Origin: an uncultured Marinobacterium sp.
Lineage (GTDB): Bacteria > Pseudomonadota > Gammaproteobacteria > Pseudomonadales > Balneatricaceae
Direction: 5' to 3'
DNA length: 64,000 nucleotides
Assembly (NCBI GenBank): GCA_947501565.1
Contig: CANMWJ010000002.1
Coordinates: 348,016 to 412,015 of the forward strand
Shown: piece by piece, positions 5,459 to 22,322 of the stretch
Layout: each line of letters opens with the position of its first letter
Position numbering within the stretch: position 1 is the first letter of the stretch
Notes under the pieces: generated by a model
Seen by the model: only the letters and a program-made list of their open reading frames with translations
Told to the model about the DNA's origin: nothing
The model's database searches: none
Program-made: the position numbers and the translations under genes

Positions 5459-5520
5459 GGGTGGTGAAAAACCTCTGCCCTCAGAAACTAGGCAATACCT
5501 AAGCCTGGAAAAGAACCGCT

Positions 5521-6183: not shown

Positions 6184-6216
6184 ACGGGTTCCTGTACTGA
6201 ATTAGATGCTATTTAC

Positions 6217-6247
6217 AAAAAAGGTCCCAACGCGAGGCGTTGAGACC
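6217..6247 (-). terminator. Hairpin plus U-run between cytochrome c' and cytochrome b561 genes (attenuator or partial terminator)
   Basis: GGTCCCAACGC/GCGTTGAGACC stem followed by TTTTTT on the minus strand. Confidence 0.4.
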
Positions 6248-6276
6248 ATTTTAAGAGCTAAGTATAACCAGTTGAA

Positions 6277-6747: not shown

Positions 6748-6993
6748 TGTATACGACTCCGGTAATAGTTTTGTGATTACGGCGGCAATAATAGCACCGA
6801 CATTATATTCAATGAATCTAATTTAGTGCTTTTATAACGTAAAGTTGTGTAAAAGATGTGGCAGACATTGAGCGGCTCTAGGAAATCCGTTTTCCTCAGT
6901 TGCTGCTGACGGCGAAGAAGAGTGACATAGGGGAGCTGTCAGGCCGTGGTAGGCAGTCTACCCGGCCTGATAAAGAATGGAGATGGATGTTCG

Positions 6994-7404
6994 TTAACTG
7001 GCTTTTGCGGGTACGTCGAAGTCGTAAATAACCTGCAGGATATCCGGGCAACTGAGTATTCCAACCAGCTTGCCATTCTCGACGATTGGCATCGGTCGCC
7101 AGTTATTACGGGTCATCGTATCGGCAACATCAACGATATCATCACCAGGCGCAGCCGTATGGACTTCAGTCTGCATGTAGTCACTCACTGTGCCACCGAC
7201 CTGCTTATAGTAACTACCCTGCAGGATGCGGCTCAGGCAATCCCATTCGCTCAGTAACCCGACGATTTTGCCCTGTGAATCAACCACCGGAGCACCTGAT
7301 ATGCGTCTTTCCAGCATAACCTCTATCGCTTTGAACAGCTCGGTGTCCGGGTGAAAGGTAACAAGGTTGGTCACCATATAGTCACGAACTTTTACAGATC
7401 TCAT
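6994..7404 (-). CDS. CBS-domain pair protein
   Basis: Tandem CBS motifs. Track start 7413 is GTG; the ATG at 7404 has a GAGGTGA SD. Confidence 0.7.
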   Translation of the reverse strand: MRSVKVRDYMVTNLVTFHPDTELFKAIEVMLERRISGAPVVDSQGKIVGLLSEWDCLSRILQGSYYKQVGGTVSDYMQTEVHTAAPGDDIVDVADTMTRNNWRPMPIVENGKLVGILSCPDILQVIYDFDVPAKAS

Positions 7405-7636
7405 CTCAATCACCTCAGTTCATGGTTCCCTTTTAGCGTAGCCTTTACACGCGGATTCAGCCCCTTAACAGGGGCGCCAAAACGCCGTGAGCGGCGCTTT
7501 GTAACTGAAATAAATGCAGCTAAAAGACGAAATACATGAATAATCCGCAACGCTTTTTAATAAAGAAGTCATAAAAACAGCCGAATGAGCATTCATAAAC
7601 ATATGAAATCCATTCAAGGAACATGGGTTGCGGTTT

Positions 7637-8023
7637 ATGATGACGTTAAAGCAGTTTCAAACGGGAAGTGCTGTTGCGGAGTACCTTCTCGCGCTTGTTC
7701 TGGTGCTGACAACCACCCTTATCGGGTTTGCATTTGTCAGCGACAATGTCACCAAAGAGATCAACTCTCTCACACAGGCCTTTCGGCCCTACCCACCTGA
7801 TGATGAATTGGAGTCAGCCGAAACCATCGTGCTTAACGATGAGTTTTTTTATAAGTACGGCGCTCCTGGAGCCGGCCCGGCAGAGCCGGACAGTTTTATC
7901 CGGTTGAATCCTGACGGCACGATCAGAATCTCCATTTCACCTGGAAACCTGATCCTTGGTGGTGCGATTCTGTTTGGTTTGATGTTATCGCTGCTGATCT
8001 ACCGGTTTGGTGTAAGGCGCTGA
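7637..8023 (+). CDS. Flp/Fap-pilin-like membrane protein with a long C-terminal extension
   Basis: N-terminal QTGSAVAEYLLALVLVL matches the Flp pilin G-x4-EY motif and hydrophobic helix. A second TM lies at the C-terminus. Start chosen at ATG 7637; the track TTG is at 7628. Confidence 0.45.
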   Translation: MMTLKQFQTGSAVAEYLLALVLVLTTTLIGFAFVSDNVTKEINSLTQAFRPYPPDDELESAETIVLNDEFFYKYGAPGAGPAEPDSFIRLNPDGTIRISISPGNLILGGAILFGLMLSLLIYRFGVRR

Positions 8024-8052
8024 TACCGCATCCGATACAGGTGAGCTTGGCG

Positions 8053-9381
8053 TTAGTGGACGCCGAGCTGGTTTAACCAGCGGGTGATCATAGCTTGCTG
8101 CATGGCTTCGAGCGGTAAGACCGCGAGGGTGTCTTCCAGTGACTGCCCTACCTCGCGCTGTTTTACCGCGTTAACCACCGGTGCCAACTCTATACCTGCC
8201 ATATGCCAGATGCCCAGTGGCTGATCGGGCGTGACCACGACCTCCGCTTTCACAATACGGTTGTCTTGTACCACCGGCATCGCACGAACCTCAAATGCGT
8301 CGAAGTTCTCCGTCTGGTGTAAAGGTTGTGCATCGGGCCACTGACAGCGCTGCTGCCAGAACGGTTGCTCTGGCCACTGGGTTTCCATGCCATAGAAATC
8401 CCGCCCAATACGGGCAAAGCGGTAGAACAGCGCGCTGACACGGGCTTGGTGGAACTGCTTCGCCAGCTCCGCATTATCAGGACTGCTCAGTAGTGTATTG
8501 ATAACGGCGGGTGCCTGCAGCGCAGAGGAGAGTGCCTGAAATATGCCGTTGCCTGAGAGCGGATCCACTGCCATCGCCGCATCCCCTACCCTTATCCAGT
8601 TATCACCCACCACCTCTTCGCAGAGAATCGGCGTACTTGTACGGGCATAGAACTCGCCGGTGGGTTGGGCGTTCTGCATAAAGGGTTGTGCCTGAGGCAG
8701 GCGTTTGAGGCGTTCGATACAGAAATCCAGCATCTCAGCTTTAGGCGGGAGATTGGCGCTTGCAACATCGAAGGTCAGCTGCAGATACCGCTTACCGGTA
8801 TCCGTCATCGCCATCCAGGCCCAGCCATCTTCAAAACTGACCGCTGCGGATTGCGGTACGCAAGCCTCTCCCTGCCAGTACTGCAGCAGCGAAACGGTTT
8901 CGGCGCCGCGCACGCGCGGTAGATGGGCCGACGCTGCGGAACGTCCACGCGCTTCAACCAGGAAATCTGCGGTAATCTGTTGAACCTCGGCATCCCCGCG
9001 GGTTTCGGAAACCTGCACAGCGGGGCCGTCGAGTGAAACGGCTTTTATCCGCGCGTCTATCAGCTCAACGCCAGCGTTTTTCAGATCCTGCCAGATACCG
9101 TAATCAAGCGTCTGGCGATCGATCAGCCGTTCGGTATTGGCACTGTTGCTCTGGCCGTTCCAGGTGGCGTTGCGTGCAGACGGTTGCGCCAGATCTTTCA
9201 GTGCTTCAACAAAACCCGCGGCTCGCAGGCCCTCTATAACCCGATCGGATACGCCCTCTACCGCATCAAAGGGGCGTCGCTGTGCGATCACTGTCACCTG
9301 ATAGCCGAGTCGCACCATTCCTAACGCAACAGCGCCACCAGCGGGACCTGCGCCCAGGACAACAATGCGTTTCGTATTCAT
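8053..9381 (-). CDS. qhpG: FAD-dependent monooxygenase QhpG (hydroxylates the gamma-subunit Trp for cysteine tryptophylquinone, CTQ, formation)
   Basis: N-terminal Rossmann fold KRIVVLGAGPAGGAVA. Sits in an operon with qhpF and qhpE in the QHNDH locus. ATG 9381 (MNTKRIVV) has a GGAAGAG SD; the track GTG is at 9405. Confidence 0.7.
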   Translation of the reverse strand: MNTKRIVVLGAGPAGGAVALGMVRLGYQVTVIAQRRPFDAVEGVSDRVIEGLRAAGFVEALKDLAQPSARNATWNGQSNSANTERLIDRQTLDYGIWQDLKNAGVELIDARIKAVSLDGPAVQVSETRGDAEVQQITADFLVEARGRSAASAHLPRVRGAETVSLLQYWQGEACVPQSAAVSFEDGWAWMAMTDTGKRYLQLTFDVASANLPPKAEMLDFCIERLKRLPQAQPFMQNAQPTGEFYARTSTPILCEEVVGDNWIRVGDAAMAVDPLSGNGIFQALSSALQAPAVINTLLSSPDNAELAKQFHQARVSALFYRFARIGRDFYGMETQWPEQPFWQQRCQWPDAQPLHQTENFDAFEVRAMPVVQDNRIVKAEVVVTPDQPLGIWHMAGIELAPVVNAVKQREVGQSLEDTLAVLPLEAMQQAMITRWLNQLGVH

Positions 9382-9398
9382 CACCACTCTTCCTGCTG

Positions 9399-10112
9399 TC
9401 ACCACTCTTCCTCTTCTGGCCGATAGACACCGGTACGCTGTTCTGCGCCGAAATAACTGGCGTTGGATTTAAGATGTTTGCCCAGTGCAGCGCGTGACGC
9501 TTCAGGCTGAGCAATCAGGAACTGCGCAATATGTCCGCAGATATAGGCTGTGCCGATACTGGCACCCGAGATCTCCCCGTCCAGACAGCGCACATGGGCA
9601 CCAAAGTCAGCGTATTGAGTGCCCAGCAACGACCACTCCTCTGGCGCACAACGTGCATCACCGGTCGTTCGCAGTACGCCGGGATAATGAGAGGGATACA
9701 CGGGGTCGCCTTTGGCTGGCGATGAGGCGCAAAGCAAAACGCCTTTTGCGACTGCTCGCTCAACGGCGTCGCGCAAAACATCGCGGTCAGTACGCAGGCC
9801 AAGGCTGAGGTTGATCACCTGCACGTCCTGCTCGACCAGCCAGTCGATCGCAGAGGCCACCTGTGCGGGCGTAGTGGTAAAGCGTTCGGAAAACACCTGT
9901 GCCATGTAGATCTGGGCCTTAGGCGCTAACCGATGGATCACGTCGACGATCTTGCTGCCATGGCCCAGAGTGTCGAGACTGGCGTCATCCATCCATAGGG
10001 CGTCGTCCTTCAGTACAAAGGCGGCTGAGTCAGTTACAAAGGATGCGTTATAGTCGCGGTAGCCGCTATCGACGATACCTACTTTAACAACCGCATTGCC
10101 CAGGTCAGTCAT
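9399..10112 (-). CDS. qhpE: Subtilisin-like S8 serine peptidase QhpE (gamma-subunit leader peptidase)
   Basis: VGIVDSG (Asp), HGS (His) and a Ser-containing block near the C-terminus. Short (237 aa), as expected for QhpE. Overlaps the qhpF stop by 8 nt. Confidence 0.65.
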   Translation of the reverse strand: MTDLGNAVVKVGIVDSGYRDYNASFVTDSAAFVLKDDALWMDDASLDTLGHGSKIVDVIHRLAPKAQIYMAQVFSERFTTTPAQVASAIDWLVEQDVQVINLSLGLRTDRDVLRDAVERAVAKGVLLCASSPAKGDPVYPSHYPGVLRTTGDARCAPEEWSLLGTQYADFGAHVRCLDGEISGASIGTAYICGHIAQFLIAQPEASRAALGKHLKSNASYFGAEQRTGVYRPEEEEW

Positions 10113-11835
10113 CGATCTGTACCTTTGCTGTCTGCTGAACTAGCTTGCCCTGGTCCAGTTGCAGATAGAGATCCGCTTGCGCCAGCGTTGAAGTGCGGTG
10201 GCTGATCAGAATGCGGGTACGGTCACAGAACAGCCCATCTACCGCATCGATTATCTCGCGTTCTGTCGCTTCGTCTACGGCCGACGTGGCCTCATCCATC
10301 ACCAGTACGCTAGGTTGTTGCAAAAGCGCACGTGCGATGGCGATACGCTGTTTCTGTCCGCCGGAAAGTTGCTGGCCGCGCTCACCCAACGGGGTATCTA
10401 AACCCTGCGGCAGGGATTCAATCAGTTCGCCTAAGCGGGCCTGAATCGCGGCACCCAGTACCTGCTCGTCGGTGGCGTCTGGCGCTGCATAACGGATGTT
10501 TTCGGCGACACTGCCCCGGAACAGCACGATCTCCTGGCTGACAACTGCGATACGACGGCGTAGATCCGCCAACGAGCAGTCACGCAGATTAACGCCATCC
10601 AGTTGGATTGTGCCCTGCTGCGGATCGTAGTGGCGCTGCAATAGGTCGATCAGGGTGGACTTGCCGGTACCCGATGGCCCCTGCAGTGCTACCTTGCTGC
10701 CTGCTGCGATCGTCGCGGAGGCATCCTCCAGCACGACTGCGCCTTTAGGACCGTAACGGAAGCTGATGTTATCAAGTTCGATTGTGCCGCCCTGCTCCGG
10801 CAATGCCTTGTGCTGGGTGGTTGTCTGAACGGCAACCTCTACATCACGCAACTCCATTACACGGCCCAAACTCACGGTCATACGCTGGATCGCTACGTAA
10901 AGGCCCAGCAGACTCTGCACCGGTCCGACCGCCATACCCAGATAAGTGGAGAACGCAATCAGCGCGCCAAGCTGCCACTGGCCCTCGATCACCCAGTAGC
11001 CGCCGATCAGAAACGCGCTGGCACGGGAGAGTGAGGTGAATGTGCTGGGTACTGCCTGTGTGAAGAATTCGGTGACCTGCAGTTTGAGCAGGTCACTGAG
11101 GTAGTGTTCGTTGAGCCCTTTCAGTCGATCGGACTCTTTTTTCTCCTGCCCTACCGACTGGATAAATTTCATCGCGGGCAGTGTTTCCACCAGAAAGGAT
11201 GAAAGGTCCGCCGAACGTTCGCGTAGTTTACGGGTGCGCACCTCCACCTTACGGCGCATCCAGCGCAGCCACAGTACCTCCAGCGGGATCAGCAGCGCCA
11301 CGATCAGCGACAGCTGCCAGGAGAGCGCCACCATCAACACGATCGCGCCGACAAGTCCGATAATGCTGGAAACGGCGGAGAACAGGGAGTCCACGGCAAA
11401 ACGCTGGATCTGCGCCACGTCACCATCCAGGCGGGAGAGGATGTCACCGATACGGCGTTGGGCAAAAAACGTTGGCGCCAGCTTCTGCAGATGACCGTAC
11501 ACATCGTCGCGCAGGCTGAACAGGATACGTGCCGACAGTTGCGTATGCAGATAGCGGTTAATACCGGACAATGCAGTACCGAAGATACCGACGCCGATCA
11601 TCGCCAGCGCAACCTGAACAAGCGTGCCATAGTCCTTGGCGATCAGACCGTCGTCGATCAGCATCTTGGTCAGCCAGGGCTGCATCAGCACCAGCATTGA
11701 GGCCAGCAGCGACAACCCCAGCACGCGCAGAATCGCGATCCGTTGCGGTTTTACAAACCCGAACAGCCAGTGCAGTGCGCGCTCAAGGGTTTGAGGGTCG
11801 GTGGTTTCAACGGCGCGGGCGAGCCATCTGATCAT
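10105..11835 (-). CDS. qhpF: ABC exporter (fused permease + ATPase) QhpF
   Basis: Six-TM ABC exporter fold, Walker A GPSGTGKST, signature LSGGQKQR and Walker B VLVMDEATSAVD. Confidence 0.8.
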   Translation of the reverse strand: MIRWLARAVETTDPQTLERALHWLFGFVKPQRIAILRVLGLSLLASMLVLMQPWLTKMLIDDGLIAKDYGTLVQVALAMIGVGIFGTALSGINRYLHTQLSARILFSLRDDVYGHLQKLAPTFFAQRRIGDILSRLDGDVAQIQRFAVDSLFSAVSSIIGLVGAIVLMVALSWQLSLIVALLIPLEVLWLRWMRRKVEVRTRKLRERSADLSSFLVETLPAMKFIQSVGQEKKESDRLKGLNEHYLSDLLKLQVTEFFTQAVPSTFTSLSRASAFLIGGYWVIEGQWQLGALIAFSTYLGMAVGPVQSLLGLYVAIQRMTVSLGRVMELRDVEVAVQTTTQHKALPEQGGTIELDNISFRYGPKGAVVLEDASATIAAGSKVALQGPSGTGKSTLIDLLQRHYDPQQGTIQLDGVNLRDCSLADLRRRIAVVSQEIVLFRGSVAENIRYAAPDATDEQVLGAAIQARLGELIESLPQGLDTPLGERGQQLSGGQKQRIAIARALLQQPSVLVMDEATSAVDEATEREIIDAVDGLFCDRTRILISHRTSTLAQADLYLQLDQGKLVQQTAKVQIDD

Positions 11836-11880
11836 AGGACTGGGGTACTCGGTGGAAAGCTAAAACACATATGAATCCAC

Positions 11881-11943
11881 TGTAACCGGATGTAACAGTG
11901 GGCATTCGATCACTTTGTATGAAGATGTAACAGGTTGTAACGG
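11881..11943. promoter_or_regulatory. Array of TGTAAC / GATGTAAC direct repeats upstream of the qhpFEG operon
   Basis: TGTAACC-GGATGTAACAG ... GATGTAACAG GTTGTAACGG, with 10-bp phasing. Confidence 0.4.
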
Positions 11944-11960
11944 AGCCGGTAGCAGGAAGT

Positions 11961-13886
11961 TTAGCCTTCCTGCTCCAGTTCCTGCAGTCGGCGATACAGC
12001 GTTGCACGGCTGATACCCAGTGCTTTAGCTGTGGCGCTGATATTGCCGTTATGCTCATCCAGCGCCTTGCGGATCGTCTGTTGTTCGCTCTGCTTTAGAA
12101 TACCGCCGCTACCCTGTCCCTCCGCTTCATGGTTCAGCTGGTCAAGGAAATCGTCGGTGAGGTGATCTTCGGTGATCAGCAGTTCATCCTCGTCAAGGAA
12201 CGCCAATGCCGCTTTGAGTATGGTCTCCATCTGGCGGATGTTGCCTGGCCAGCTGTAGTCAGACAAACTGGTTAACAATCCAGATTCGATCTCGACCGGT
12301 TTGCTGATCCCGCAACGTTGCTGAACCGCGCCAAGTAATTTGGCCAGAAACTCCGGCAGATCTGCCCGCTCACGCAGCGCTGGCAGTTTTACGCCCACAC
12401 CGTTCAAGCGATAGAACAGATCTTCACGGAAATCGCCCTCGGCCACCAGGGCGCGCATATCGCGGTGGGTGGCGCAGATCAGGCGGATATCCAGAGAAAC
12501 CTCTTCGCCACCGCCGAGCGGAGCAACGCGGCGTTCCTGCAATACGCGCAGCAAGCGTGCCTGCAGCGCCAGTGGCATATCGCCGATCTCATCAAGGAAT
12601 AGCGTACCGCCGTCAGCCTGCTGGAAACGGCCCACCATGCCGCCACGGCGGGAGCCGGTGAAGGCACCTTCGCGGTAACCAAAGAGTTCGGATTCGATCA
12701 GGCCTTCCGGAATTGCGGCGCAGTTAACAGCGATAAAAGGTTTGTTGGCACGAGGTCCCGCGTCGTGCAGCGCACGGGCAACCACCTCTTTACCGGTACC
12801 GGTTTCACCGTTAAGCAGTACCGGCAGGTCGTGCGCCATCCCTTTCAGAGCCATCTTCAGGCTGCGGCTTAGGCGTGGATTATTGCCTGCCACCTCGGCG
12901 AGTCCCGGACGTTTCTCTTCACCGCTGCGCTTGATGCGTTGCTCAGCGGTAAACGGCAGACTGATACGTGGTTTAGGCAGCTGAATCAGGCGGCAGTAAA
13001 GCGCGCCGTTACGGGTTTGCAGGGTATGGGGTTTGCCCTGCATCAGATGGTTGATCAACTGGGATGCGCTGATACCCAGCACCTCCTCCAGAGGCCGCTG
13101 CTTGAGAGCACCCTCCTGTACGTTCAGCAACTGGTGCGCTTGTTGGTTTGCGCCCAGCAGGTCGCCATCGGGATCAACGGCCAGTAGCCCCTGCCAGACA
13201 GAATCCAGGTATTGCTGGCGGCTATGGATAGCGATCACCGCGTTTTCATTAAAACTGGCGGAGAAAAGACGGTTCTCGATGGAACGCGCCGCCATCTGCA
13301 CCACTTCCAGTGGCTGTTGCACGCGACCGCGCAGATGGGTCATATCCAGCACACCCAGGGTGTTGCCGCTAGGGTCAAAGATCGGTGAAGAGGTACAGCT
13401 GAACTGATTCAGGCGATCCAGAAAATGCTCGTGGCCTTCGATCTTAACCGGACAAGCGTCAACCAGTGCAGTGCCCAAGGCGTTGGTGCCGCGGCTTACT
13501 TCGCTCCAGCAGACGCCGGGATTGAGGGCGTAACGTGCGGCTTTGTCCAGCGCATTGCTGTTGCCTTTTACGGCCAGAATACGGGCGTCACAATCGGCAA
13601 GCATCACCAACGCACGATCAGCGGCGTACTGACGGGTCAGCATCTCCACTTCGGGCGCAGCGCAATCCAGCAGAAGCTTGTTCTGCTCGCGCAGATCCTG
13701 CACGTCAGCGCGACTCAGTTGTTCGACGTCAACGCTGTTCTGGGTATCCAGGCCCGCATCTAAACTGCGCAGCCAGGACGCTTCGATCGGTTCGCGCAGC
13801 TGCCCACCGGGAATATCTCGCTGCAGAATCAGTTGCCGTGTTACGTCGGTACGCAACAGGTTATGGGGTTCGGTATTGATCGCCAT
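11961..13886 (-). CDS. Sigma-54-dependent transcriptional activator with N-terminal GAF sensor (AcoR-type)
   Basis: AAA+ sigma-54 interaction motifs GETGTGKE and GAFTGS, plus a C-terminal HTH (ISATAKALGISRATLYRRL). ATG 13886 has an AAGGTGGAG SD; the track GTG is at 13898. Confidence 0.8.
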   Translation of the reverse strand: MAINTEPHNLLRTDVTRQLILQRDIPGGQLREPIEASWLRSLDAGLDTQNSVDVEQLSRADVQDLREQNKLLLDCAAPEVEMLTRQYAADRALVMLADCDARILAVKGNSNALDKAARYALNPGVCWSEVSRGTNALGTALVDACPVKIEGHEHFLDRLNQFSCTSSPIFDPSGNTLGVLDMTHLRGRVQQPLEVVQMAARSIENRLFSASFNENAVIAIHSRQQYLDSVWQGLLAVDPDGDLLGANQQAHQLLNVQEGALKQRPLEEVLGISASQLINHLMQGKPHTLQTRNGALYCRLIQLPKPRISLPFTAEQRIKRSGEEKRPGLAEVAGNNPRLSRSLKMALKGMAHDLPVLLNGETGTGKEVVARALHDAGPRANKPFIAVNCAAIPEGLIESELFGYREGAFTGSRRGGMVGRFQQADGGTLFLDEIGDMPLALQARLLRVLQERRVAPLGGGEEVSLDIRLICATHRDMRALVAEGDFREDLFYRLNGVGVKLPALRERADLPEFLAKLLGAVQQRCGISKPVEIESGLLTSLSDYSWPGNIRQMETILKAALAFLDEDELLITEDHLTDDFLDQLNHEAEGQGSGGILKQSEQQTIRKALDEHNGNISATAKALGISRATLYRRLQELEQEG

Positions 13887-14127
13887 CGCCCACTCCACCT
13901 TATTGTTATTGTCTGGATTTGGGGTTGATCGGATTGGTAAAACACAGCGGTGTTACCAAACATGGATTCAAAAATACTAGCAGATTACGTTTCTGGATTC
14001 TCCTACCTGACAATCGCCGTATCCTCGATACGCGAAACGCATAAGGGTGGGCGGTGTAGCTAACGCAACCAGCCAACTACGCCGCCCTGCCGTCCCTGGC
14101 AATGGGGTAGAACGTTAAACGCGCTTC

Positions 14128-15456
14128 TTAGTAGAAGTACATCAGCACTGCCTGCAGGTACAGGTTGTCGTTGCTGTTGCCCTGAGCCGCGATGTTCGCG
14201 GTGCCTTTTGGCTCGTACAGACCGATCATCGGGCTGAATACCCAGTTGTCGTTAATAGACCACAGAGCGTACAGATCGATCTCGGTTGCGGCGTTATCCG
14301 CGGCGTTGTCTGTCTTATCGAAATCCCAGTACTGCAGGCCTACGGTCAGATCCTCACGTGGTGTCAGGGTCAGTTCCAGTCGATCAACCTCGTTACCGCT
14401 GTTGAACGGGCCGCCGTAGTTCGCTGCAACCTCACCCTGGAACCAGGTACCGAAACCGCGGGTGAAACCGAAGAACAGCGGATCGAAGGTTTCATCTTTG
14501 CTGGTGGCAGTGTTATCGCCGGAGAACTCCGCGTGGCGGTAGTTCAGGTTTGGTGTCCATGGCAGATCGGCAAAGGTCCAGCCGCCCTCCACGTACCAGG
14601 CGTCAGCGTCCTTCTCGGTCTGATCACCGCCGGTTTCTGACACGTATTCAAACGACAGGAACAGGTTGTCGACGCCCATGCTACCCTGCCCGCGCAGGCT
14701 GACTACATCCATACCGTCGCGGTTATCGAACAGTGCCAGGCCGGCGCCTACGTCCACGTCGGTGGCTTTCATGTAGGTCAGGCCCAGCGTGCCCATCGCA
14801 TCGTCGACGTACTCCAGATTCAGACCGGTCAGTTCGGTGTTCTGCTGGTACTGGTTGTCAGACTTCAGCCAGAACAGGTCGCCCCGGATCGGGCCTTCAG
14901 GATCAACTTTCAGAATTGCGGTGTTGTCGAAGCTCTTGCGGCCCGCCAGATAGTAGGCACCGCCACGGTCCAGACTGCCATTGGAGACAGAATCAAAACC
15001 TTTACCCGGGCTGATCGCATCACCGGCGATCAGAAAACCGTCGCCCAGGGTAAATATCTGTCGACCCACAGAAAGATCAACGAGGTTGTTGGAGGACTGC
15101 CAGCCAACGTAGGCGTTTTCCAGATGGATTTCGTCTTCGTCACCGGTGGTCAAACCCAGGCCGTCACCGTCGCTGCGGGTACCCAGCGCGATGACGCCGA
15201 TACCGCCATAAAGAGTGTTGCCGTTCTCCAACAGGCTGGAGCCGACGAGGTCACCTTTGATGTACGCTTCCTGCCAGGATTTTTCGCCCGGTGTGCCAGT
15301 GTAGTTCTCATCCAGCGACATTGCTGCGGCCATCGCTTCAACGTTAAATGAGATGGTTTTGCCGTTCTCTTCTGAGATGACAGCTGCCAGCAGGTTGGGT
15401 GCAAAGCATGCTGATAAAGCCATAGCAGTCAATGAGTTACGCATTGTTTTTATCAT
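14128..15456 (-). CDS. Outer-membrane beta-barrel porin-like protein (paralog of 55194..56489)
   Basis: Signal peptide MIKTMRNSLTAMALSA..., C-terminal ...LMYFY. Shares blocks (NAWYVEGGWTFAD..W.P..NYR) with the second copy. Start set at ATG 15456 with a GGAG SD. Confidence 0.65.
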   Translation of the reverse strand: MIKTMRNSLTAMALSACFAPNLLAAVISEENGKTISFNVEAMAAAMSLDENYTGTPGEKSWQEAYIKGDLVGSSLLENGNTLYGGIGVIALGTRSDGDGLGLTTGDEDEIHLENAYVGWQSSNNLVDLSVGRQIFTLGDGFLIAGDAISPGKGFDSVSNGSLDRGGAYYLAGRKSFDNTAILKVDPEGPIRGDLFWLKSDNQYQQNTELTGLNLEYVDDAMGTLGLTYMKATDVDVGAGLALFDNRDGMDVVSLRGQGSMGVDNLFLSFEYVSETGGDQTEKDADAWYVEGGWTFADLPWTPNLNYRHAEFSGDNTATSKDETFDPLFFGFTRGFGTWFQGEVAANYGGPFNSGNEVDRLELTLTPREDLTVGLQYWDFDKTDNAADNAATEIDLYALWSINDNWVFSPMIGLYEPKGTANIAAQGNSNDNLYLQAVLMYFY

Positions 15457-15517
15457 TGTTTCTCTCCGTAAACGAAACACTTTCTTATTGTTGTTTTGCT
15501 TTCTCCGGGCAAAAAAA

Positions 15518-15546
15518 CGGCCCGGGGAGGAACCCTCCCCGTATGG
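15518..15546 (-). terminator. Possible partial terminator downstream of qhpB
   Basis: Minus-strand hairpin CGGGGAGG-GTTC-CTCCCCG followed after 4-5 nt by TTTTTTT. Confidence 0.35.
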
Positions 15547-15646
15547 GCCAAGGCTTGGGATTGCTAATTGCTACCCGGAGGAGTGATCGCGGCCGAGGGG
15601 AAATACACAGCCGCGTTCGCCGTGGTGGGTCAAAGACCCGTTACGG

Positions 15647-16804
15647 TTAACGAATAAAGACCTGGGATGTAGAGATCGCCATATCGCCACCCGGCAGCTT
15701 GATGTTGCCCAGTTTCTCCATGGAGTCAGCGTCGTAGATCGCCACGTCGTCGTAGGTACCGCCCAGATACACTTTGCTACCGTCGTGGTTCATGGCGATG
15801 CAGTAGTAGGAGTGATCCAGCTCGGCGGCTTTGATCAGCTTCTGCTGTTTCACGTCGTACTTCGCCAGACGGTTCAGCACGCCGAACACCAGGTTCGGGT
15901 CTTTTGGCGACTTCATACCGGTGAAGTAGATCTCGGTGATCGGGCCGAAGTCGGTGGTTTCGGTTTCACCGGTCTCCAGATCCACGTTCAGGTAGCCGTA
16001 GATCCAGTCGGCAGTGGCCAGATCCTGCTTCTCATCCTGAAAACGCGCGGTGGTGTAAAGGATGGTGAAGTCCTTGCTCGGGGTCTGGATTGGCCAGGCG
16101 TTCAGTACGTCCGGCTGCACGTACAGCGGGCGCTCCCAGTTGCGGCTAGGCAGGTGTACGTCGTATTTACCGGTTTTCACATCCATCTTGTAGATGTCGG
16201 CTCCAGCCATATACAGGCCGCCGTCTTTACCGGTTGCCATTACGGTTACCTGACGCGGTGCCGGGAAGGTACGGACCGGCTTTGCACCTTTGCCGTCTGC
16301 GGTGTTGTAGACCGCCAGATAGGTGTCCTGCACACGGTAATGGTCACGGTTCAGCTTGGTTGGGTTGTGCATCACGTACAGCTCTTTGCCGTCCGGACTC
16401 AGCGCCATGGAGAACAGCGATTTGGTGCGGACGCTGTTCTGTCGGTCTGAGAAGGTGGTGTGGAAACTGATACTGCAATCGTCCACGTTGATGCCGTACA
16501 CGTCCTCGTAGTGGTTGGTCAGCATGTAGACAGTCTTTTTGTCCGGTGCGACCTGCAGTACACCCGGGCCGTACGCGCCCGGTACCTTACAGGTTTTCAG
16601 GAGACTGTCGGTCTGCAGATCCAGAACATGGATCTGGTTCGGGTAGTTGGCAACCACCATGTACTCCTGCCCCGCTTTCAGCGCGGGGCCTACTTTCTCA
16701 GGAGCATCAGCGTAGGTAACACCGCTGGTCAGTGTAGCTCCAAGAATACCTGCACCGGCCATCAGGCTACGCAGGGTTTTGCGCATCTTGTTTTTGTTAT
16801 TCAT
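15647..16804 (-). CDS. qhpB: Quinohemoprotein amine dehydrogenase beta subunit (beta-propeller)
   Basis: 385 aa with a signal peptide. ~45% identical to the second copy at 37183..38343. Lies immediately downstream of qhpC. Confidence 0.8.
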   Translation of the reverse strand: MNNKNKMRKTLRSLMAGAGILGATLTSGVTYADAPEKVGPALKAGQEYMVVANYPNQIHVLDLQTDSLLKTCKVPGAYGPGVLQVAPDKKTVYMLTNHYEDVYGINVDDCSISFHTTFSDRQNSVRTKSLFSMALSPDGKELYVMHNPTKLNRDHYRVQDTYLAVYNTADGKGAKPVRTFPAPRQVTVMATGKDGGLYMAGADIYKMDVKTGKYDVHLPSRNWERPLYVQPDVLNAWPIQTPSKDFTILYTTARFQDEKQDLATADWIYGYLNVDLETGETETTDFGPITEIYFTGMKSPKDPNLVFGVLNRLAKYDVKQQKLIKAAELDHSYYCIAMNHDGSKVYLGGTYDDVAIYDADSMEKLGNIKLPGGDMAISTSQVFIR

Positions 16805-16822
16805 CGCTTTGTCCTGTGCTGG

Positions 16823-17149
16823 TTACTTCTTATCGGATGGGAACACGGTGCCCAGATTGCGCCAGCTCTCGCCGGAATCCAGTGCGTTTTCGTTCCAGTT
16901 GGTGTGCGTGTTCATCATGTCCGGCACCTGCGCAGGCCACCAACATGGATCGGCACAGCCATACAGGTCGGATTCCATCGGCTGACACAGGGAGGTTACG
17001 GAACCAAACGCATCGATCTCCCAGCCCGGGTCGGTGGTGGCGGCACAACCGGCCAGTGACTGCATCGCAACCACCTCTTCCACCTGATCTTCAGCAACCG
17101 CTTTGTCCAGCAGCTGCGCTTTGTTGTTTATCGCTTTCAGATGTTTCAT
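16823..17149 (-). CDS. qhpC: Quinohemoprotein amine dehydrogenase gamma subunit precursor (CTQ-bearing, thioether cross-linked)
   Basis: 28-aa leader [10 protein letters not shown]...EEVVAM followed by a core with Cys7, Glu16, Cys27, Asp33, Cys37, Cys41, Trp43 and Asp49, all at the spacings described for the Paracoccus gamma subunit. GGAGG SD. The track ORF extends further 5' to 17224. Confidence 0.85.
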
Positions 17150-17150
17150 A

Positions 17151-18644
17151 TCAGTTTGCCCTCCGAGGCAAAATGTATTGATCGATGAAGCCCGGGTTCT
17201 CGGCCATGATGCGTGCGTACACATCGATGCCGAAATCCACCCAATCCCTCATCAGATCGCAATAGTGGTAGGTAGGACGGGTCGCATCACCGTAACGGGC
17301 GTGGCTCTCGTGGTAACAGCCGCCGGAGCAGAGGTTACGAATACGGCAGGAGGCGCAACCGGTGTTGCTGCGGTCGAGCCGTTGCGAGAGGAAATCGCCC
17401 AGTTGGGCGTGGTCCACGCCGTTCTGAATGTCACCAAAGGTGTTCAGATCGGAGCCGGTGAAACGATGACAGAGGTTGAGATCGCCCTTGTGATCCACCG
17501 CCAGCATCTTCAGGCCTGCGCCACAGGGCAGCGCTTTCTTATGGCCTTCGTGCAGGTCGGTGATCAGCTGGTGCAGGTTGGAGAAACCGATGTTGCGGTT
17601 CTCCAGCGCGGCAGCGAGATACTGCTCACCCAGCGCCTTCATGTTGTCGAACACCTGCTTGAGCTCATCGTCGGTCAGATTGAAGTAGGAGACGTCACCG
17701 GATGTCACCGGTGCAAAACCCACCTCTGCAAAGCCCAGTTCGTTGAACAGGTGGTCCCAGATACCTACCACGTCGGTGGTGCCTTTGGTCAGGGTGACGC
17801 GGGCACCGATCGGACGGCGACGGTAACCGGCCAGCAGCATCTTCGCTTTCTGGCTCACCACGTCGTATGTGCCCTGCCCGCCCACGGTGATTCGGTTCTT
17901 ATCGTGTACCGCTTTGGGGCCATCCATACTCACGGAGAGACCGAAGTTGTGTTCCGACAGCCAGGCAACGATTTCCTCGTTGAGCAGCGTGGCGTTGGTG
18001 GTCATGGTGAACTCCACCCGCTTACCGCGTGCCGGAATCTCCCGTTCGCACCATGCCACCACCGATTTGATCAGTGGCAGATTGCTCAGAGGCTCACCAC
18101 CAAAGAAGACGATGTTGTACAGGTCCTCGTCCGGAGACTCGGCCAGCATCATCTCGATCGATTGGATCGCTGTCTCGAAGGTCATCTTCTTGCCCGCAGA
18201 GGGCTTGTCCAGATCTTCCTTGTAGCAGTAGGTGCAGCTCAGGTTACAACCGGTATTCACGTTCAGCACGATGGTGTTGAGCGGGAACTGATCCACCGAT
18301 TTAGCCGCGATCTCCTCGGTCAGCGGCGAGCCGTCGCTCACCACCTCCAGTGCCATCAGTTCGCGCAGGGTGTCCGCGATCTGTTGGGCTGTGAAGCTAT
18401 CGTTCAGGTGGCGGATCAGATCCGGGCTGGTCCACTTCTCAGTGCTGTTCACGTCGCCGCGCAGGGTATCGATCACCCCGGCGGTGACACCGTCCAGCTC
18501 AAACAGAGAGCTGGTTGGGATATGGAACAGCAAGCGGCGTTCGCTCACCTGCACCAGGTGCAGGTTATGCTCGACCAGATTCAGCACGGAGCTGTTGTCT
18601 AAAGACAGCCCTGAGCCGCTGTTAAGGTGTAGTTGGGCGCTCAT
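17151..18644 (-). CDS. qhpD: Radical SAM/SPASM maturase QhpD (forms gamma-subunit thioether bonds)
   Basis: CNLSCTYC radical-SAM cluster motif and a C-terminal SPASM Cys cluster (CGAG...[14 protein letters not shown]). GAGGAGG SD. Confidence 0.85.
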
Positions 18645-18697
18645 GGCAACCTCCTCGTCATACCTCGGTTAAACGTTGTCAGGTGCAATCGCTACGC

Positions 18698-20299
18698 TTA
18701 TGGCAGCGGCGCATCGTTCCAACGTTGAACCGTAACGATCAGTTGGCCATCGCCCTGCAGGGTCTGGTCACCATCCTTAACAGACGCCACCACTTTCAGG
18801 TTACCGGCGTTGTTGGTGGACATGCGGCGTTCCGGGTTAGGCCCGGCATTGCCCGGCGTAAACACACCACTGGTAGCATCCATACGACCGGCAAAGTACA
18901 CGTCGTTGTCCGCTCTCGCCGCTTCGTCGAACGGCTCCACATGCCAGCTGGCAGGCAGGTAGCCGATACGGATGTCGTCCTCAGTACCTGGCTTACCGTC
19001 AGCACCCGCGCCCCAGGCTTCCGCTTCGAAACGGGCCTGTACTTTCGGTGTGCTACCGCCGTTACCGCCCACTCGGGCGATGGTGAACGCCGGTTGTACT
19101 TTGATGGAATCAACCTTGTTGTAGACGGCGAACTGGCCACCGTTGACGCCACCCACAGTGACGGAGTTGGCTGAGGTGGTGGCGTTCGCGTCGGCTTTCG
19201 CCAGTACGGTGACGCTGTTGTAGGTGCGTTTCAGTACTTTCTCCACGCTCACGCCGTTACCCAGGGAGACGCGCCCTTTCAGGCCTGTGCCCACGATGGT
19301 GACTTCGGTGGATTCACCCGCTTTCAGGTTTTGCGGATAAACAGCGACGATCTGGTGGTTGCCGGTGGTCGCTTTCGCCGCACTGAACTCCATACCGCGC
19401 TCATCGTGTGCCGCTTCAAATACACGGCCACTCAGGTTCATGCCGTCTTTGCTCGCTGCCAGCACCTGACGGGTAATCACACCGCCCAGGTCTATCTCAG
19501 CGCGCCATTCGAAACCGGTATAGACGATCGCTGTGCCGCTGCCTTTGAGCGGTGTGCCATCGGCCCAGGTGCCTTCCATGCTTACGCTGTAGCGGTCCCC
19601 CGCTTGCTGAGTAATCGTCATCAGGCCACTGCCGTCACCACGGCCCGGCTGATGCACGGCGAAGCTCCACTGACCGACAAAGTCGGGTTTAGCGGCGGAC
19701 TGCCACTGATCCCAGCTGTTGCTGTCCATCGGGAACATCTTGCTGAGTTTAGGCACCATCTCGTTCAACGCGATCGGGAACCAGTCGCGGTCACGCGCCA
19801 GCGCCTGATATTCGGTGGATGGCCACTGACCCAGATGGAAGTGCACCAGATGCTCCCACTCAGCTGCCGGACGGCGCTGCAGCCCGACGCGGGCACCAGA
19901 GTGGCAACGGGCGCACATCTCTTCAAACTGGCTGTCTTCGAAGGATTCCATGGTGTCGAGGCGACGTTCCATGGCGTAGCGGTAGGTGGAAGTTTCTTCC
20001 GGGGCGAGGCCCTGACGATCTGCCAGGTACTTCACCACGGTGGCACGATCGTCATCGCTGATCTGCAGACCGTGCATCATCTGCATACGGCCGATGGTCA
20101 TCAGCCAGCCTTCCGGCGTTTTGCGCTGGTGGCTGATACGGCTCCATTGGGGAGCAGCCTGATTCTCTTCAGTGTGACAGGCGAGGCATTTGCCCTGCAC
20201 GATCTTAACCGCGTCTTCCTGCGCGTAGCTCGGTAGCACGGTGGTCGTCAGAGCGGCGGTAATCGCCAGCGCCAACGGGCTTTTTATTATTGTGTTCAA
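18698..20299 (-). CDS. qhpA: Quinohemoprotein amine dehydrogenase alpha subunit (dihaem cytochrome c + beta-sandwich domains)
   Basis: Two CxxCH motifs (CLACH, CARCH) plus a signal peptide. TTG start at 20299 is preceded by a perfect AAGGAGG SD. Confidence 0.85.
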   Translation of the reverse strand: MNTIIKSPLALAITAALTTTVLPSYAQEDAVKIVQGKCLACHTEENQAAPQWSRISHQRKTPEGWLMTIGRMQMMHGLQISDDDRATVVKYLADRQGLAPEETSTYRYAMERRLDTMESFEDSQFEEMCARCHSGARVGLQRRPAAEWEHLVHFHLGQWPSTEYQALARDRDWFPIALNEMVPKLSKMFPMDSNSWDQWQSAAKPDFVGQWSFAVHQPGRGDGSGLMTITQQAGDRYSVSMEGTWADGTPLKGSGTAIVYTGFEWRAEIDLGGVITRQVLAASKDGMNLSGRVFEAAHDERGMEFSAAKATTGNHQIVAVYPQNLKAGESTEVTIVGTGLKGRVSLGNGVSVEKVLKRTYNSVTVLAKADANATTSANSVTVGGVNGGQFAVYNKVDSIKVQPAFTIARVGGNGGSTPKVQARFEAEAWGAGADGKPGTEDDIRIGYLPASWHVEPFDEAARADNDVYFAGRMDATSGVFTPGNAGPNPERRMSTNNAGNLKVVASVKDGDQTLQGDGQLIVTVQRWNDAPLP

Positions 20300-20369
20300 G
20301 GTCAGACCTCCTTTTGTTTTTGTTGTCCGGCGTTTGGATGTCCGGTGTATCTAACCTGCCCTTACACGT

Positions 20370-20386
20370 AGCGAAGCCCGTGCCAA
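20370..20386 (-). promoter_or_regulatory. Putative sigma-54 promoter for qhpADCB (cluster 1)
   Basis: Minus-strand TGGCACGGGCTTCGCT has GG-N10-GC spacing. The -12 element is TCGC rather than TTGC. Lies 70-85 nt upstream of the qhpA start. Confidence 0.35.
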
Positions 20387-20514
20387 AAAAAGAAATCTCT
20401 TTATTTACAATTGGTTACCTAAAAAATGTAGGGTTTCGGGTTATCCCGTATCGCGGTGCACACTGTTGCAGAACAAGACAACCTGTCCAAAGTTGAGACA
20501 CAGCGAGATGAGAT

Positions 20515-20591
20515 GTTGGGCATCGCGTTGCGGTGGCCAACCTACAGCGATGCGACCTATGTAGGTTGGCCATTTGGAACAAATGCCCAAC
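20515..20591. repeat. Inverted pair of REP elements (GTTGGGCATCGC...CCAACCTAC family)
   Basis: Palindromic ~31-nt units in head-to-head arrangement. Confidence 0.7.
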
Positions 20592-20714
20592 ACCCAACCT
20601 GACTCGATTTTTTACAGCCTGTCTCAGAATGTGACACACCATCAAAAACAGCATAAAAACCACTTACAAATAAAAATCCATAAAATTCAATTGGTTATGT
20701 GTATCTCGCTGTGT

Positions 20715-20730
20715 TGGCACAGCCCTTGCG
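20715..20730 (+). promoter_or_regulatory. Sigma-54 (RpoN) promoter of the aldehyde dehydrogenase gene
   Basis: TGGCAC-AGCCC-TTGCG is a consensus -24/-12 element. Located 45 nt upstream of ATG 20775. Confidence 0.6.
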
Positions 20731-20774
20731 CTACCCCGGTGACATTGCCAAAACAAAAACAAGAAGGTTTATCA

Positions 20775-22271
20775 ATGAGTTACACCGACACAGCGATGGC
20801 AGCGACCACTGCCTTTATCAATCAGGAACATAAGCTGTTAATTGGCGCAGAACGCTCACTGGCGGCTTCAGGTCGTACGATTAATGTTTACAATCCGGCC
20901 ACTGGAAAGGCGATCACCCAGGTCCCAGCAGGCGACAAAACAGAAATTGACCAGGCGGTTGCTGCTGCCCGACAGGCCTTTGATGACTCCGACTGGTCCC
21001 GCATGAAACCGGGCGACCGTGAGCGTCTGTTGTGGCGTCTGGCGGATCTGATCGAAGAGAATGCGGAACTGCTGGCGGAGATCGAATCGATCGACAACGG
21101 CAAAAGTAAAGCGATCGCACAGGCGGTAGATATCCGCCTCGCCACCGACTTCCTGCGTTATATGGCGGGCTGGGCGACCAAGATCGAAGGTCAGACCGTG
21201 AATCCAAGCCTGCCGTTTATGCCGGGCGCGGAAACCTTCGCCTACACCACCCGTGAAGCGGTAGGTGTCGTAGGCGCTATCGTGGCGTGGAACTTCCCGC
21301 TGCTGCTGGCCTGCTGGAAACTGGGCCCTGCCCTGGCAACCGGCTGTACAGTGGTACTGAAACCAGCCGAAGAAACCCCACTCACCGCCCTGAAACTGGG
21401 TGAATTGGTGCTGGAAGCGGGTTACCCGGCCGGTGTGGTGAACGTTGTTACCGGTGAAGGTCACGAAGCCGGTGCTGCCCTCTCCTCTCACCCGGATGTC
21501 GATAAGCTTACCTTCACCGGCTCCACCGAAGTGGGCAAGCTGATCGGTAAAGCGGCGATGGATTCCATGACCCGCGTGACCCTGGAGCTGGGCGGTAAGT
21601 CACCGACAATCGTAATGCCGGATGCGGACCTGACTGTCGCGGCACAAGGCGCGGCGAACGCCATCTTCTTCAACCACGGCCAGGTGTGCTGCGCCGGTTC
21701 CCGCCTGTACGTGCATAAGAAACACTTCGACCGCGTGGTGGCCGATGTCAGCGATATCGCCGCGAATCTGCCGATGGGACACGGCCTGGATATGAACGCC
21801 CAGATGGGACCGCTGGTCTCTGCTCGTCAGCAGGAGCGCGTGCAGGGTTATATCGATCAGGGTATCGCAGCAGGCGCTACCGCGACTGTAGGTGGATCGG
21901 CCTATAACGGCGAAGGTTACTACGTGAAACCAACGGTTCTGGTGGATGTGGATCAGCAGTCTGCTGTGACTCGTGAGGAGATCTTTGGCCCGGTTCTGGT
22001 GGCGATGCCGTTTGACGATATGGATGAAGCGATCCGTATCGCCAACGACAGTCAGTACGGTCTGGGTGCCAGCATCTGGTCCAACAACCTGTCGGAAGTG
22101 CACCGCATGATCCCGCGTATCAAGTCCGGCTCAGTTTGGGTGAACTGCCACACCGCGCTTGATCCGTCCCTACCGTTCGGTGGCTTTAAGCAGTCCGGTC
22201 TCGGTCGCGAGATGGGGCGTGAAGTGCTGGAGCACTACACCGAGGTGAAGTCTGTGGTGATTAATCTCTGA
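20775..22271 (+). CDS. NAD(P)-dependent aldehyde dehydrogenase
   Basis: ALDH catalytic Cys (QVCCAGS), Glu (ELGGKSP) and GxGxxG-like NAD motifs. Start reset to ATG 20775 with an AAGAAGG SD; the track ORF begins at 20574. Confidence 0.8.
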   Translation: MSYTDTAMAATTAFINQEHKLLIGAERSLAASGRTINVYNPATGKAITQVPAGDKTEIDQAVAAARQAFDDSDWSRMKPGDRERLLWRLADLIEENAELLAEIESIDNGKSKAIAQAVDIRLATDFLRYMAGWATKIEGQTVNPSLPFMPGAETFAYTTREAVGVVGAIVAWNFPLLLACWKLGPALATGCTVVLKPAEETPLTALKLGELVLEAGYPAGVVNVVTGEGHEAGAALSSHPDVDKLTFTGSTEVGKLIGKAAMDSMTRVTLELGGKSPTIVMPDADLTVAAQGAANAIFFNHGQVCCAGSRLYVHKKHFDRVVADVSDIAANLPMGHGLDMNAQMGPLVSARQQERVQGYIDQGIAAGATATVGGSAYNGEGYYVKPTVLVDVDQQSAVTREEIFGPVLVAMPFDDMDEAIRIANDSQYGLGASIWSNNLSEVHRMIPRIKSGSVWVNCHTALDPSLPFGGFKQSGLGREMGREVLEHYTEVKSVVINL

Positions 22272-22279
22272 TTTGTACT

Positions 22280-22309
22280 GCTGGCGGTGTAAGTTGTTGC
22301 ACCGCCAGC
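22280..22309. terminator. Convergent-gene hairpin between the ALDH and ECF sigma genes
   Basis: Perfect 10-bp stem GCTGGCGGTG/CACCGCCAGC. No strong U-run. Confidence 0.35.
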
Positions 22310-22322
22310 GCTGTGAGCAAGA

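Follow-up and report, generated by a model that had tools for sequence, protein, structure and literature searches.

A quinohemoprotein amine dehydrogenase locus in an uncultured Marinobacterium, with a putative divergent sigma-54 control region and an AlgE-like porin gene

The DNA examined here is a stretch of 64 kb (the window) from contig CANMWJ010000002.1 of an uncultured Marinobacterium sp. Nine co-directional open reading frames (ORFs) lie on its minus strand at 8053-20299, separated by short gaps or overlapping, and all of them were translated. All nine ORFs are intact at these coordinates, as claimed by the original prediction, which was made from the letters alone. The region is very probably a catabolic locus, intact in its structural and maturation genes alike, that encodes a periplasmic quinohemoprotein amine dehydrogenase (QHNDH). 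The nine-gene extent given earlier stands as a count of the minus-strand genes but not as the limit of the locus: a tenth gene, which encodes an aldehyde dehydrogenase (ALDH) and is transcribed divergently, belongs to the regulatory unit. Families were assigned with NCBIfam equivalog models and their curated cut-offs, and with Pfam. The genes, in the reading direction of the minus strand, are as follows.

20775-22271, plus strand: NAD(P)-dependent aldehyde dehydrogenase, PeaE/StyD-like, divergent from qhpA (Pfam Aldedh, E 1e-177)
18698-20299, minus strand: qhpA, diheme alpha subunit with signal peptide (TIGR03908, 696 bits against a cut-off of 274, model positions 3-510 of 510)
17151-18644, minus strand: qhpD, radical SAM/SPASM thioether-forming maturase (TIGR03906, 739 bits against 453, positions 1-466 of 467)
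16823-17149, minus strand: qhpC, gamma-subunit precursor with a 28-residue leader and an 80-residue core (NF037958, 160 bits against 50)
15647-16804, minus strand: qhpB, beta-propeller beta subunit with signal peptide (TIGR03907, 487 bits against 223, positions 1-338 of 338)
14128-15456, minus strand: AlgE-like (Alginate_exp) outer membrane channel, very acidic (PF13372, 50.9 bits against 25.2)
11961-13886, minus strand: sigma-54 enhancer-binding activator with GAF, AAA+ and Fis-type HTH domains (Pfam)
10105-11835, minus strand: putative qhpF, half-size ABC exporter (Pfam ABC_membrane and ABC_tran, synteny)
9399-10112, minus strand: qhpE, subtilisin-like leader peptidase (NF049966, 289 bits against 165, positions 1-219 of 219)
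8053-9381, minus strand: qhpG, FAD monooxygenase for Trp43 dihydroxylation (NF049967, 548 bits against 240, positions 1-423 of 423)

Six of the nine minus-strand proteins (QhpA, QhpD, QhpC, QhpB, QhpE, and QhpG) match NCBIfam equivalog models over their full length and far above the cut-offs, and all ten gene products are full length against their models with catalytic motifs intact. QhpA matches all four Pfam domains of the QHNDH alpha subunit (PF09098, PF14930, PF09099, and PF09100) and carries the heme motifs CLACH at residue 38 and CARCH at residue 129. Its gene starts with a TTG codon served by an AAGGAGG ribosome-binding site (RBS), a start that is shared with Pontibacterium. QhpD has CX3CX2C (CNLSCTYC) at residue 133 and seven C-terminal (SPASM) cysteines. 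The triad Asp15/His51/Ser185 of QhpE is readable in the motifs DSG15, HGS51, and GASIG183, GAGPAG is present in QhpG, and the exporter shows Walker A, an LSGG signature, and Walker B. The motifs CLACH and CARCH quoted for QhpA in the original prediction are borne out, and its call of a complete QHNDH structural and biogenesis locus agrees with the six equivalog matches and with the register of QhpC described below.

QhpC, a protein of 108 amino acids whose start codon lies one base past the qhpD stop, can be compared directly with crystallized gamma subunits. From residue 29 onward, its alignment with the mature gamma chains of Pseudomonas putida (1JMX_G, E 1e-41, 75% identity) and Paracoccus denitrificans (1JJU_C, E 1e-33, 62% identity) contains no gap. 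With Met29 counted as residue 1, Cys7, Glu16, Cys27, Asp33, Cys37, Cys41, Trp43, and Asp49 are all in place, and each cross-linking Cys, Asp, or Glu and the Cys and Trp of the cysteine tryptophylquinone (CTQ) cofactor fall in register with the solved subunits. This is the alignment that had been named as the check on QhpC, and it upholds the reading of the spacings as three thioethers and a Cys37-Trp43 CTQ. The eight positions are invariant in 81 of 81 sequences (the window and 80 related loci), across which the leader frame MKHLK..N.KA...EEVVA/M is also conserved (the slash marks the border between leader and core). The predicted leader length of 28 residues is correct, whereas its proposed ending EEVVAM is not: the leader ends in EEVVA, and Met29 is core residue 1, as the earlier numbering of Cys7 already implies. 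A leader of 28 residues and a QhpE cleavage site ahead of the mature chain have been described for this family (PMC7876137).

To place the locus among known ones, one genome per species was scanned for qhpC, and the ten window proteins were mapped by tblastn onto the 80 closest loci; further loci were reached through porin homologs. At least 578 species have qhpC. Every related locus carries full-length alpha and beta subunit genes flanking qhpC, and in most of the 80 loci ALDH and qhpA are transcribed divergently, ALDH with 66 to 91% identity. The closest relatives are two Pontibacterium loci (L004 and L005), with 65 to 94% protein identity and an identical order: divergent ALDH, then qhpADCB, porin, activator, and qhpFEG. 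On this basis the source would be a member of the Oceanospirillales resembling Pontibacterium. Marinobacter alexandrii shares this order at 52 to 82% protein identity. Pseudomonas loci, that of P. putida among them, begin with the activator gene and qhpFEG, continue with the divergent ALDH gene, and end with qhpADCB; the activator that flanks qhpFEG is 53 to 62% identical to that of the window. P. putida, whose QHNDH (structures 1JMX and 1JMZ) supplies the closest solved gamma subunit, has the same ten genes minus the porin, with 54% identity for the activator and 68% for the divergent ALDH. The activator gene and qhpF are nearly contiguous in Marinobacter and Pseudomonas. A Thauera locus reads qhpFEG, an AraC-type gene on the reverse strand (beside qhpA), then qhpADCB, porin, and ALDH.

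More irregular arrangements were also seen. Marinobacterium nitratireducens has two tandem qhpADCB sets, one divergent (38 to 62%) and one close (56 to 83%), which recall the two QHNDHs reportedly present in Aromatoleum. Motiliproteus sp. MSK22-1 shows a scrambled order in which G, A, C, and B are followed by the divergent ALDH, then by D, F, and E and the activator, with qhpD apart from qhpC.

The regulator of the Paracoccus operon, QhpR, is of the AraC type. That operon holds the same seven structural and maturation genes as the window, and its QhpC has a 28-residue leader and identical thioether and CTQ positions. In contrast to Paracoccus, the window splits the ADCB and FEG blocks, with porin and regulator genes between them, has a GAF/sigma-54 regulator in place of the AraC-type QhpR, and carries a divergent ALDH gene that shares the control region. 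The order for Paracoccus denitrificans is qhpADCBEFGR (Nakai et al. 2014, as cited in PMC7876137 and PMC5023235), and the arrangement, order, and strand of qhp genes are known to vary, with the operon present in more than 1,300 species (PMC7876137). The differences from the Paracoccus order that the original prediction singled out are real, but the novelty it implied is not, since the same order occurs in Pontibacterium and Marinobacter. The substitution of a GAF/sigma-54 activator for the AraC type is likewise correct but not distinctive, because an ortholog also stands beside qhpFEG in Pseudomonas, including P. putida; the porin does follow qhpB, as stated, but recurs there in several gamma- and betaproteobacterial genera. 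The activator ortholog in Pseudomonas, Marinobacter, and Oceanospirillales makes it the usual qhp regulator in gammaproteobacteria rather than a peculiarity of the window. Overall, the locus is a correctly annotated instance of a well-known system, an uncharacterized new member with a gene order that is already on record in public genomes.

The gap of 476 bp between qhpA and the ALDH gene contains the following predicted control elements.

20715-20729, plus strand: sigma-54 (-24/-12) promoter of the ALDH gene, TGGCACAGCCCTTGC
20620-20636, no strand assigned: putative upstream activator site UAS-H, a TGT-N11-ACA palindrome, for the ALDH promoter, TGTCTCAGAATGTGACA
20484-20500 and 20464-20480, no strand assigned: putative upstream activator sites UAS-A1 and UAS-A2, tandem TGT-N11-ACA with starts 20 nucleotides (nt) apart, for the qhpA promoter
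20371-20385, minus strand: sigma-54 promoter of qhpADCB, TGGCACGGGCTTCGC

The ALDH promoter sequence is the sole perfect TGGCAC-N5-TTGC in the 64-kb window and ends 45 nt upstream of the ALDH ATG. Essentially every Oceanospirillales, Marinobacter, and Pseudomonas locus keeps it, at 34 to 97 nt ahead of the start. The qhpA promoter has one mismatch to the consensus and ends 71 nt upstream of the qhpA TTG; each of the 14 Oceanospirillales loci scanned has a counterpart between 57 and 95 nt ahead of qhpA, and one is present in M. alexandrii as well. Pseudomonas resembles the window in the ALDH promoter but differs in that a sigma-54 promoter of qhpA was not clearly recognizable by the criteria used. 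The ALDH ORF as called mechanically begins at 20574, with the Aldedh domain starting from residue 99; an RBS precedes an ATG at 20775, and judged by these features that ATG is the true start.

The putative activator sites were compared across 13 related loci from Pontibacterium, Marinobacter, Neptuniibacter, Amphritea, Marinobacterium, and Neptunomonas. UAS-H stands about 78 nt from the ALDH -24 element and has an equivalent at 76 to 89 nt in 11 of them. For the UAS-A pair, the distance to the -24 element of qhpA is about 98 nt (95 to 98) at one site and about 78 nt (75 to 79) at the other, and equivalents (at 88 to 98 and 67 to 79 nt) occur in 12 of the 13 loci, 10 of which have both sites. 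At the equivalent place upstream of ALDH, several Pseudomonas loci have a related palindrome, TGTCGCAAATCGCGACA. About 0.08 TGT-N11-ACA sites are expected by chance in 329 nt, yet three are found between the two promoters, and 5 of the 19 such sites in the window sit in two qhp intergenic gaps. The control region has what appears to be the classical layout of an enhancer-binding protein system, with putative upstream activator sites that the activator encoded in the locus would bind. Two copies of CAATTGGTTA between the activator sites and the promoters are one to two positions off the consensus of integration host factor (IHF), a loose resemblance that offers no more than a suggestion of IHF sites.

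Other searches for control elements gave little. A sigma-70 scan yielded only three weak matches, fewer than in shuffled sequence, one of which, near qhpF, overlaps its start codon. An Rfam scan of 7000-23000 gave no match at E up to 0.1, and hence no riboswitch or known small RNA in the intergenic gaps. A recurrent TGGAAATGGTCTTGC located 242 nt before qhpF in Pseudomonas was considered as a promoter and rejected; it lies within the activator coding sequence and probably reflects coding conservation.

The gap between qhpA and the ALDH gene also holds an inserted repeat. A repetitive extragenic palindrome (REP)-like element of about 58 nt (20534-20572), with a perfect stem of 13 nt and a folding z-score of -4.6, lies between the two sets of activator sites and is absent from Pontibacterium. 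It belongs to an inverted-repeat family with arms TGTAGGTTGGCCA, for which the window has 11 arm matches against 1.4 expected; other copies are at 23749-23779, 29071-29110, 37045-37077, and 52956-53390. On either side of the insertion, promoters and activator sites keep their conserved spacing.

The activator that would act on these sites matches Sigma54_activat (PF00158, E 5e-66), GAF (E 2e-11), and HTH_8 (E 6e-14), with a weak PAS match, and the motifs GETGTGKE, GAFTGS, and LFLDEIG are readable in it. Its NCBIfam matches are below cut-off and limited to the AAA+/HTH part, and no equivalog model fits it. Orthologs with 49 to 62% identity are present in the qhp loci of Oceanospirillales, Marinobacter, and Pseudomonas, and the Marinobacter ortholog carries Pfam MimR_N. 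AcoR/MimR-type activators have the same domain order (GAF-type sensor, AAA+, Fis HTH); the TGT-N11-ACA palindromes about 100 bp from -24/-12 promoters and the MimR_N of the ortholog add to the likeness, whereas the loop of the window activator reads GAFTGS rather than GAFTGA. Activators of the AcoR/EatR/MimR type respond to small carbonyl compounds. Given this behavior of its relatives and the MimR_N domain of the ortholog, an aldehyde would be at least as likely as an amine to be the signal for the activator.

The gene that follows qhpB is set apart from it by one further predicted element.

15510-15541, minus strand: intrinsic-terminator-like hairpin with T-run in the qhpB-porin gap, CGGGGAGG-GTT-CCTCCCCG then GGCCGTTTTTTT

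This GC-rich hairpin lies about 55 nt upstream of the porin start, and 8 of 14 related loci likewise have a GC-rich hairpin with a T-run, differing in sequence, between these two genes. We read it as a possible partial terminator or stabilizer of the upstream 3' end, which would set the level of the porin below that of the enzyme subunits. The gap between the porin and activator genes (14040-14127) contains another GC-rich hairpin, GGGCGG.CGTAGTTGGC...GCTAC.CCGCCC, which lacks a T-run and folds at -34 kcal/mol over the 88-nt stretch; its arms resemble the REP-like family.

The original prediction called the gene after qhpB an outer membrane porin, and the barrel is confirmed; more precisely, it is a member of Pfam Alginate_exp (AlgE-like) that starts at the ATG at 15456. 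The protein has a signal peptide (N-terminus MIKTMRNSLTAMALSACFAPNLLA) and ends on an aromatic residue (...LMYFY). A sequence search of the PDB returned no match for it. Its AlphaFold model (mean predicted local distance difference test [pLDDT] 84.5, predicted template modeling [pTM] score 0.83) has about 18 strands, and Foldseek places it closest to AlgE of Pseudomonas aeruginosa (3RBH; E 4e-15, template modeling [TM] score about 0.6, 12% identity), followed by OccD/OccK channels and chitoporin. AlgE, the best structural match, shares the Pfam family. Compared with AlgE, the window porin has only about 12% identity, is strongly acidic (the mature protein has an isoelectric point of 4.05, with 64 D/E against 23 K/R), has amine and aldehyde catabolic genes as partners, and has no alginate genes nearby. 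In fact, no alginate or other polysaccharide genes were seen in its neighborhood in the window. The absence of alg genes and the partnership with qhp and ALDH genes make the porin a member of Alginate_exp by fold, not an alginate exporter by function. At least 867 homologs were found, all with generic database names.

The genomic company of these homologs is consistent. A porin directly after qhpB is found in several Oceanospirillales loci, in M. alexandrii, Thauera, and Azoarcus loci, and in Aromatoleum, and this adjacency occurs with the sigma-54 activator and with an AraC-type regulator alike; in most Pseudomonas species, no porin lies within 10 kb of the qhp locus. In two Sedimenticola loci the porin is beside ALDH, on contigs of 3 to 4 kb that are too short to show an absence of qhp genes. 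Neptuniibacter halophilus (AP027292.1, 1-10766) has a second qhp locus, arranged A D C B F E G in a Paracoccus-like manner, with a porin paralog (49% identity) and a second ALDH gene at its end; the genome also has a porin of the window type (P0019, 69%). In a Halopseudomonas metagenome-assembled genome (L087, 1547-13124), a porin paralog with 47% identity sits in a cluster without QHNDH genes that comprises ALDH, AA_permease, two class-III aminotransferases, a short-chain dehydrogenase/reductase (SDR), and GerE-type regulators, and that looks like a transaminase-based amine catabolic cluster. From its context and charge, the porin is most likely an outer membrane entry channel for protonated amines. 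The open literature that we searched yielded neither a meaningful link between QHNDH and a porin nor one between QHNDH and sigma-54, although Arias 2008 and Schmitt 2019 may cover both. The amine-associated AlgE-like porin subfamily and the conserved divergent sigma-54 architecture would each be a modestly new point.

Taken further, the acidic AlgE-like subfamily might be a dedicated primary-amine channel that has been repeatedly recruited to QHNDH and transaminase clusters, and a PeaR-type activator, bound at TGT-N11-ACA and sensing an aldehyde, might switch on the gammaproteobacterial pathway from amine to acid. We put this forward tentatively, as a possibility somewhat short of an even chance. 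A P. putida U cluster for phenylethylamine (pea) has been described (Arias et al. 2008, as cited in PMC3644233).

Could the porin and the activator serve the aldehyde instead of the amine? In that case the barrel would be a channel for aldehydes or neutral compounds and the activator an aldehyde sensor, the pair forming a module that QHNDH loci recruited. The best-conserved promoter is indeed that of ALDH, porin paralogs pair with ALDH even where no qhp genes are seen, and the MimR_N domain of the Marinobacter ortholog joins the activator to relatives that reportedly sense small carbonyls. However, the short Sedimenticola contigs leave the absence of qhp genes there unsupported, the amino-acid/amine-type permease and class-III aminotransferases of Halopseudomonas point to amine import, and an acidic barrel suits a cationic substrate. 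On balance we regard an aldehyde module as rather unlikely. The other explanation for the barrel, that it is a passenger or a polysaccharide exporter unrelated to amines whose position is an accident of lineage, draws on a family named for alginate export, on the uniformly generic database names, on the terminator-like hairpin that parts the porin gene from qhpB, and on the Pseudomonas loci without a nearby porin. It is improbable, in view of a neighborhood free of alginate and polysaccharide genes, of the qhpB-porin adjacency that spans Oceanospirillales, Marinobacter, Thauera, Aromatoleum, and Azoarcus under two types of regulator, and of distant paralogs that again sit beside qhp, ALDH, or aminotransferase-permease genes. 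The strong acidity of the porin also differs from AlgE, whose pore is said to be electropositive.

The maturation genes form the last block of the locus. qhpE overlaps the stop of qhpF by 8 nt, and the start of qhpG is most likely the ATG at 9381, not the GTG at 9405. The exporter gene adjoins qhpE and qhpG in more than 40 loci at 63 to 69% identity, and the NCBIfam matches of its product are generic, MsbA-like, and below cut-off; its synteny identifies it as the probable QhpF. The gap of 125 nt between the activator gene and qhpF holds a repeat cluster.

11881-11942, minus strand: GTTACA-N4-GTTACA repeat cluster of three overlapping or adjacent copies, activator-qhpF gap

Three of the five TGTTACA-N4-GTTACA matches in the window lie in this gap, against 0.9 expected, and two of the GTTACA repeats there also fit TGT-N11-ACA. 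The repeats are kept in one Pontibacterium locus (L004) though the surrounding sequence diverges. A GG-N10-GC element was not found in the gap, and the repeats are possibly an operator or a promoter for qhpFEG. How, then, would the maturation enzymes be supplied in step with their substrate? QhpE and QhpG have been reported to be single-turnover enzymes (PMC7876137), and thus would be required in amounts similar to QhpC. Their supply in step with QhpC is a small puzzle, as a terminator-like hairpin and two other genes come ahead of qhpE and qhpG.

Several observations weigh against the account of the locus given here. No sigma-54 -24/-12 element was found before the porin, activator, or qhpF genes, in the window or in the related loci, and the terminator-like hairpin together with two other genes parts qhpE and qhpG from qhpADCB. 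Acidity is common in marine outer membrane proteins, which makes it weak evidence for cation selectivity. A QhpF-specific model is lacking, and the QhpF assignment is therefore by synteny only. The best NCBIfam match of ALDH, phenylacetaldehyde dehydrogenase StyD, scores 721 bits, below the cut-off of 850, so that the preferred substrate may be an aromatic or an aliphatic amine either way.

As for the locus itself, it might be present but silent or nonfunctional in this organism, given the REP-like palindrome inserted between the activator sites of the two promoters. This is very improbable: all ten genes are full length with intact motifs, the spacing of promoters and sites is kept, and the sequence bears no sign of decay. 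That the cluster instead makes a secreted ranthipeptide- or sactipeptide-like product, a peptide made by the ribosome and modified after translation (RiPP), is hardly credible, for although the usual equipment of a RiPP pathway is just such a set of leader-bearing Cys-rich peptide, SPASM maturase, S8 protease, and ABC exporter, and models of PapB, SCIFF, and other RiPP maturases also pick up QhpD (E 1e-80 to 1e-60), those scores are all below cut-off, whereas the QHNDH maturase model is far exceeded, QhpC matches a crystallized subunit residue for residue, and no locus has it without flanking alpha and beta subunit genes. Ranthipeptide/SCIFF systems do resemble the QHNDH system in that a SPASM maturase forms Cys-Asp/Glu thioethers in a leader-dependent way, with a protease and an ABC exporter acting afterward (PMC7876137), but the QHNDH product is a subunit of a quinone-cofactor enzyme, not a free peptide.

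The surroundings of the locus differ somewhat in composition. The G+C content is 56 to 59% in the locus (8001-20000), 49 to 53% to its left (1-8000), and 53 to 55% to its right (22001-30000), a modest step at the edges which hints that the locus may have been acquired as a block. No near match to the locus was found in a plasmid collection, and evidence for a plasmid-borne locus is lacking in that respect. Downstream of qhpG, and apparently unrelated to it, lie a small plus-strand ORF with a Flp-pilin-like N-terminus (7628-8023, QTGSAVAEYLL), a CBS-pair protein (6994-7413), cytochrome c' (6277-6747), and cytochrome b561 (5521-6183). Next to the locus itself we saw neither an azurin nor a cytochrome of the c550 type that could serve QHNDH as electron acceptor. 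To the right of ALDH are genes for a SigZ-type extracytoplasmic function (ECF) sigma factor (22323-22877, minus strand), a glutathione S-transferase (22934-23635, minus strand), and an RtcB RNA ligase (24070-25230, plus strand), none of which appears linked to the qhp unit. We discounted the long antisense ORFs opposite qhpD and qhpA (e.g., 17103-18602, plus strand) as a side effect of GC-rich coding sequence.

A working scheme for the locus can be drawn up, in which the steps from QhpC to amine oxidation follow from family membership and from published work on Paracoccus and Pseudomonas (PMC7876137). QhpC would be synthesized with its 28-residue leader, which QhpD would bind in order to form the Cys7-Glu16, Cys27-Asp33, and Cys41-Asp49 thioethers. 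The FAD enzyme QhpG would dihydroxylate Trp43 within a QhpC-QhpD-QhpG complex; QhpE would then cleave the leader between Ala28 and Met29, and QhpF would export the knotted QhpC peptide to the periplasm. There it would join Sec-exported QhpA, with its two hemes, and QhpB, and the Cys37-Trp43 CTQ would be completed. The resulting QHNDH would oxidize primary amines to aldehyde and ammonia in the periplasm, and the cytoplasmic StyD/PeaE-like ALDH would carry the aldehyde on to the acid. On the regulatory side, the activator would bind the TGT-N11-ACA sites and, with sigma-54, turn on the qhpADCB and ALDH transcripts, the inducer being an amine or, more likely, its aldehyde product. The hairpin with T-run downstream of qhpB would lower read-through into the porin gene, and the acidic AlgE-like barrel would let protonated amines into the periplasm. 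In P. putida U, the pea cluster reportedly reads peaABCDEFGHR.

As an annotation, the locus carries little weight beyond itself, since QHNDH and its maturation are well characterized biochemically and structurally and curated models already name six of its proteins. What the comparison yields in addition is a testable map of the control region, with two divergent sigma-54 promoters and three positioned putative activator sites; for this enzyme family, most work on regulation has dealt with the AraC-type QhpR of Paracoccus. It also brings out an uncharacterized subfamily of AlgE-like porins found with amine catabolic genes, which is a candidate route by which amines may reach the periplasmic dehydrogenase.

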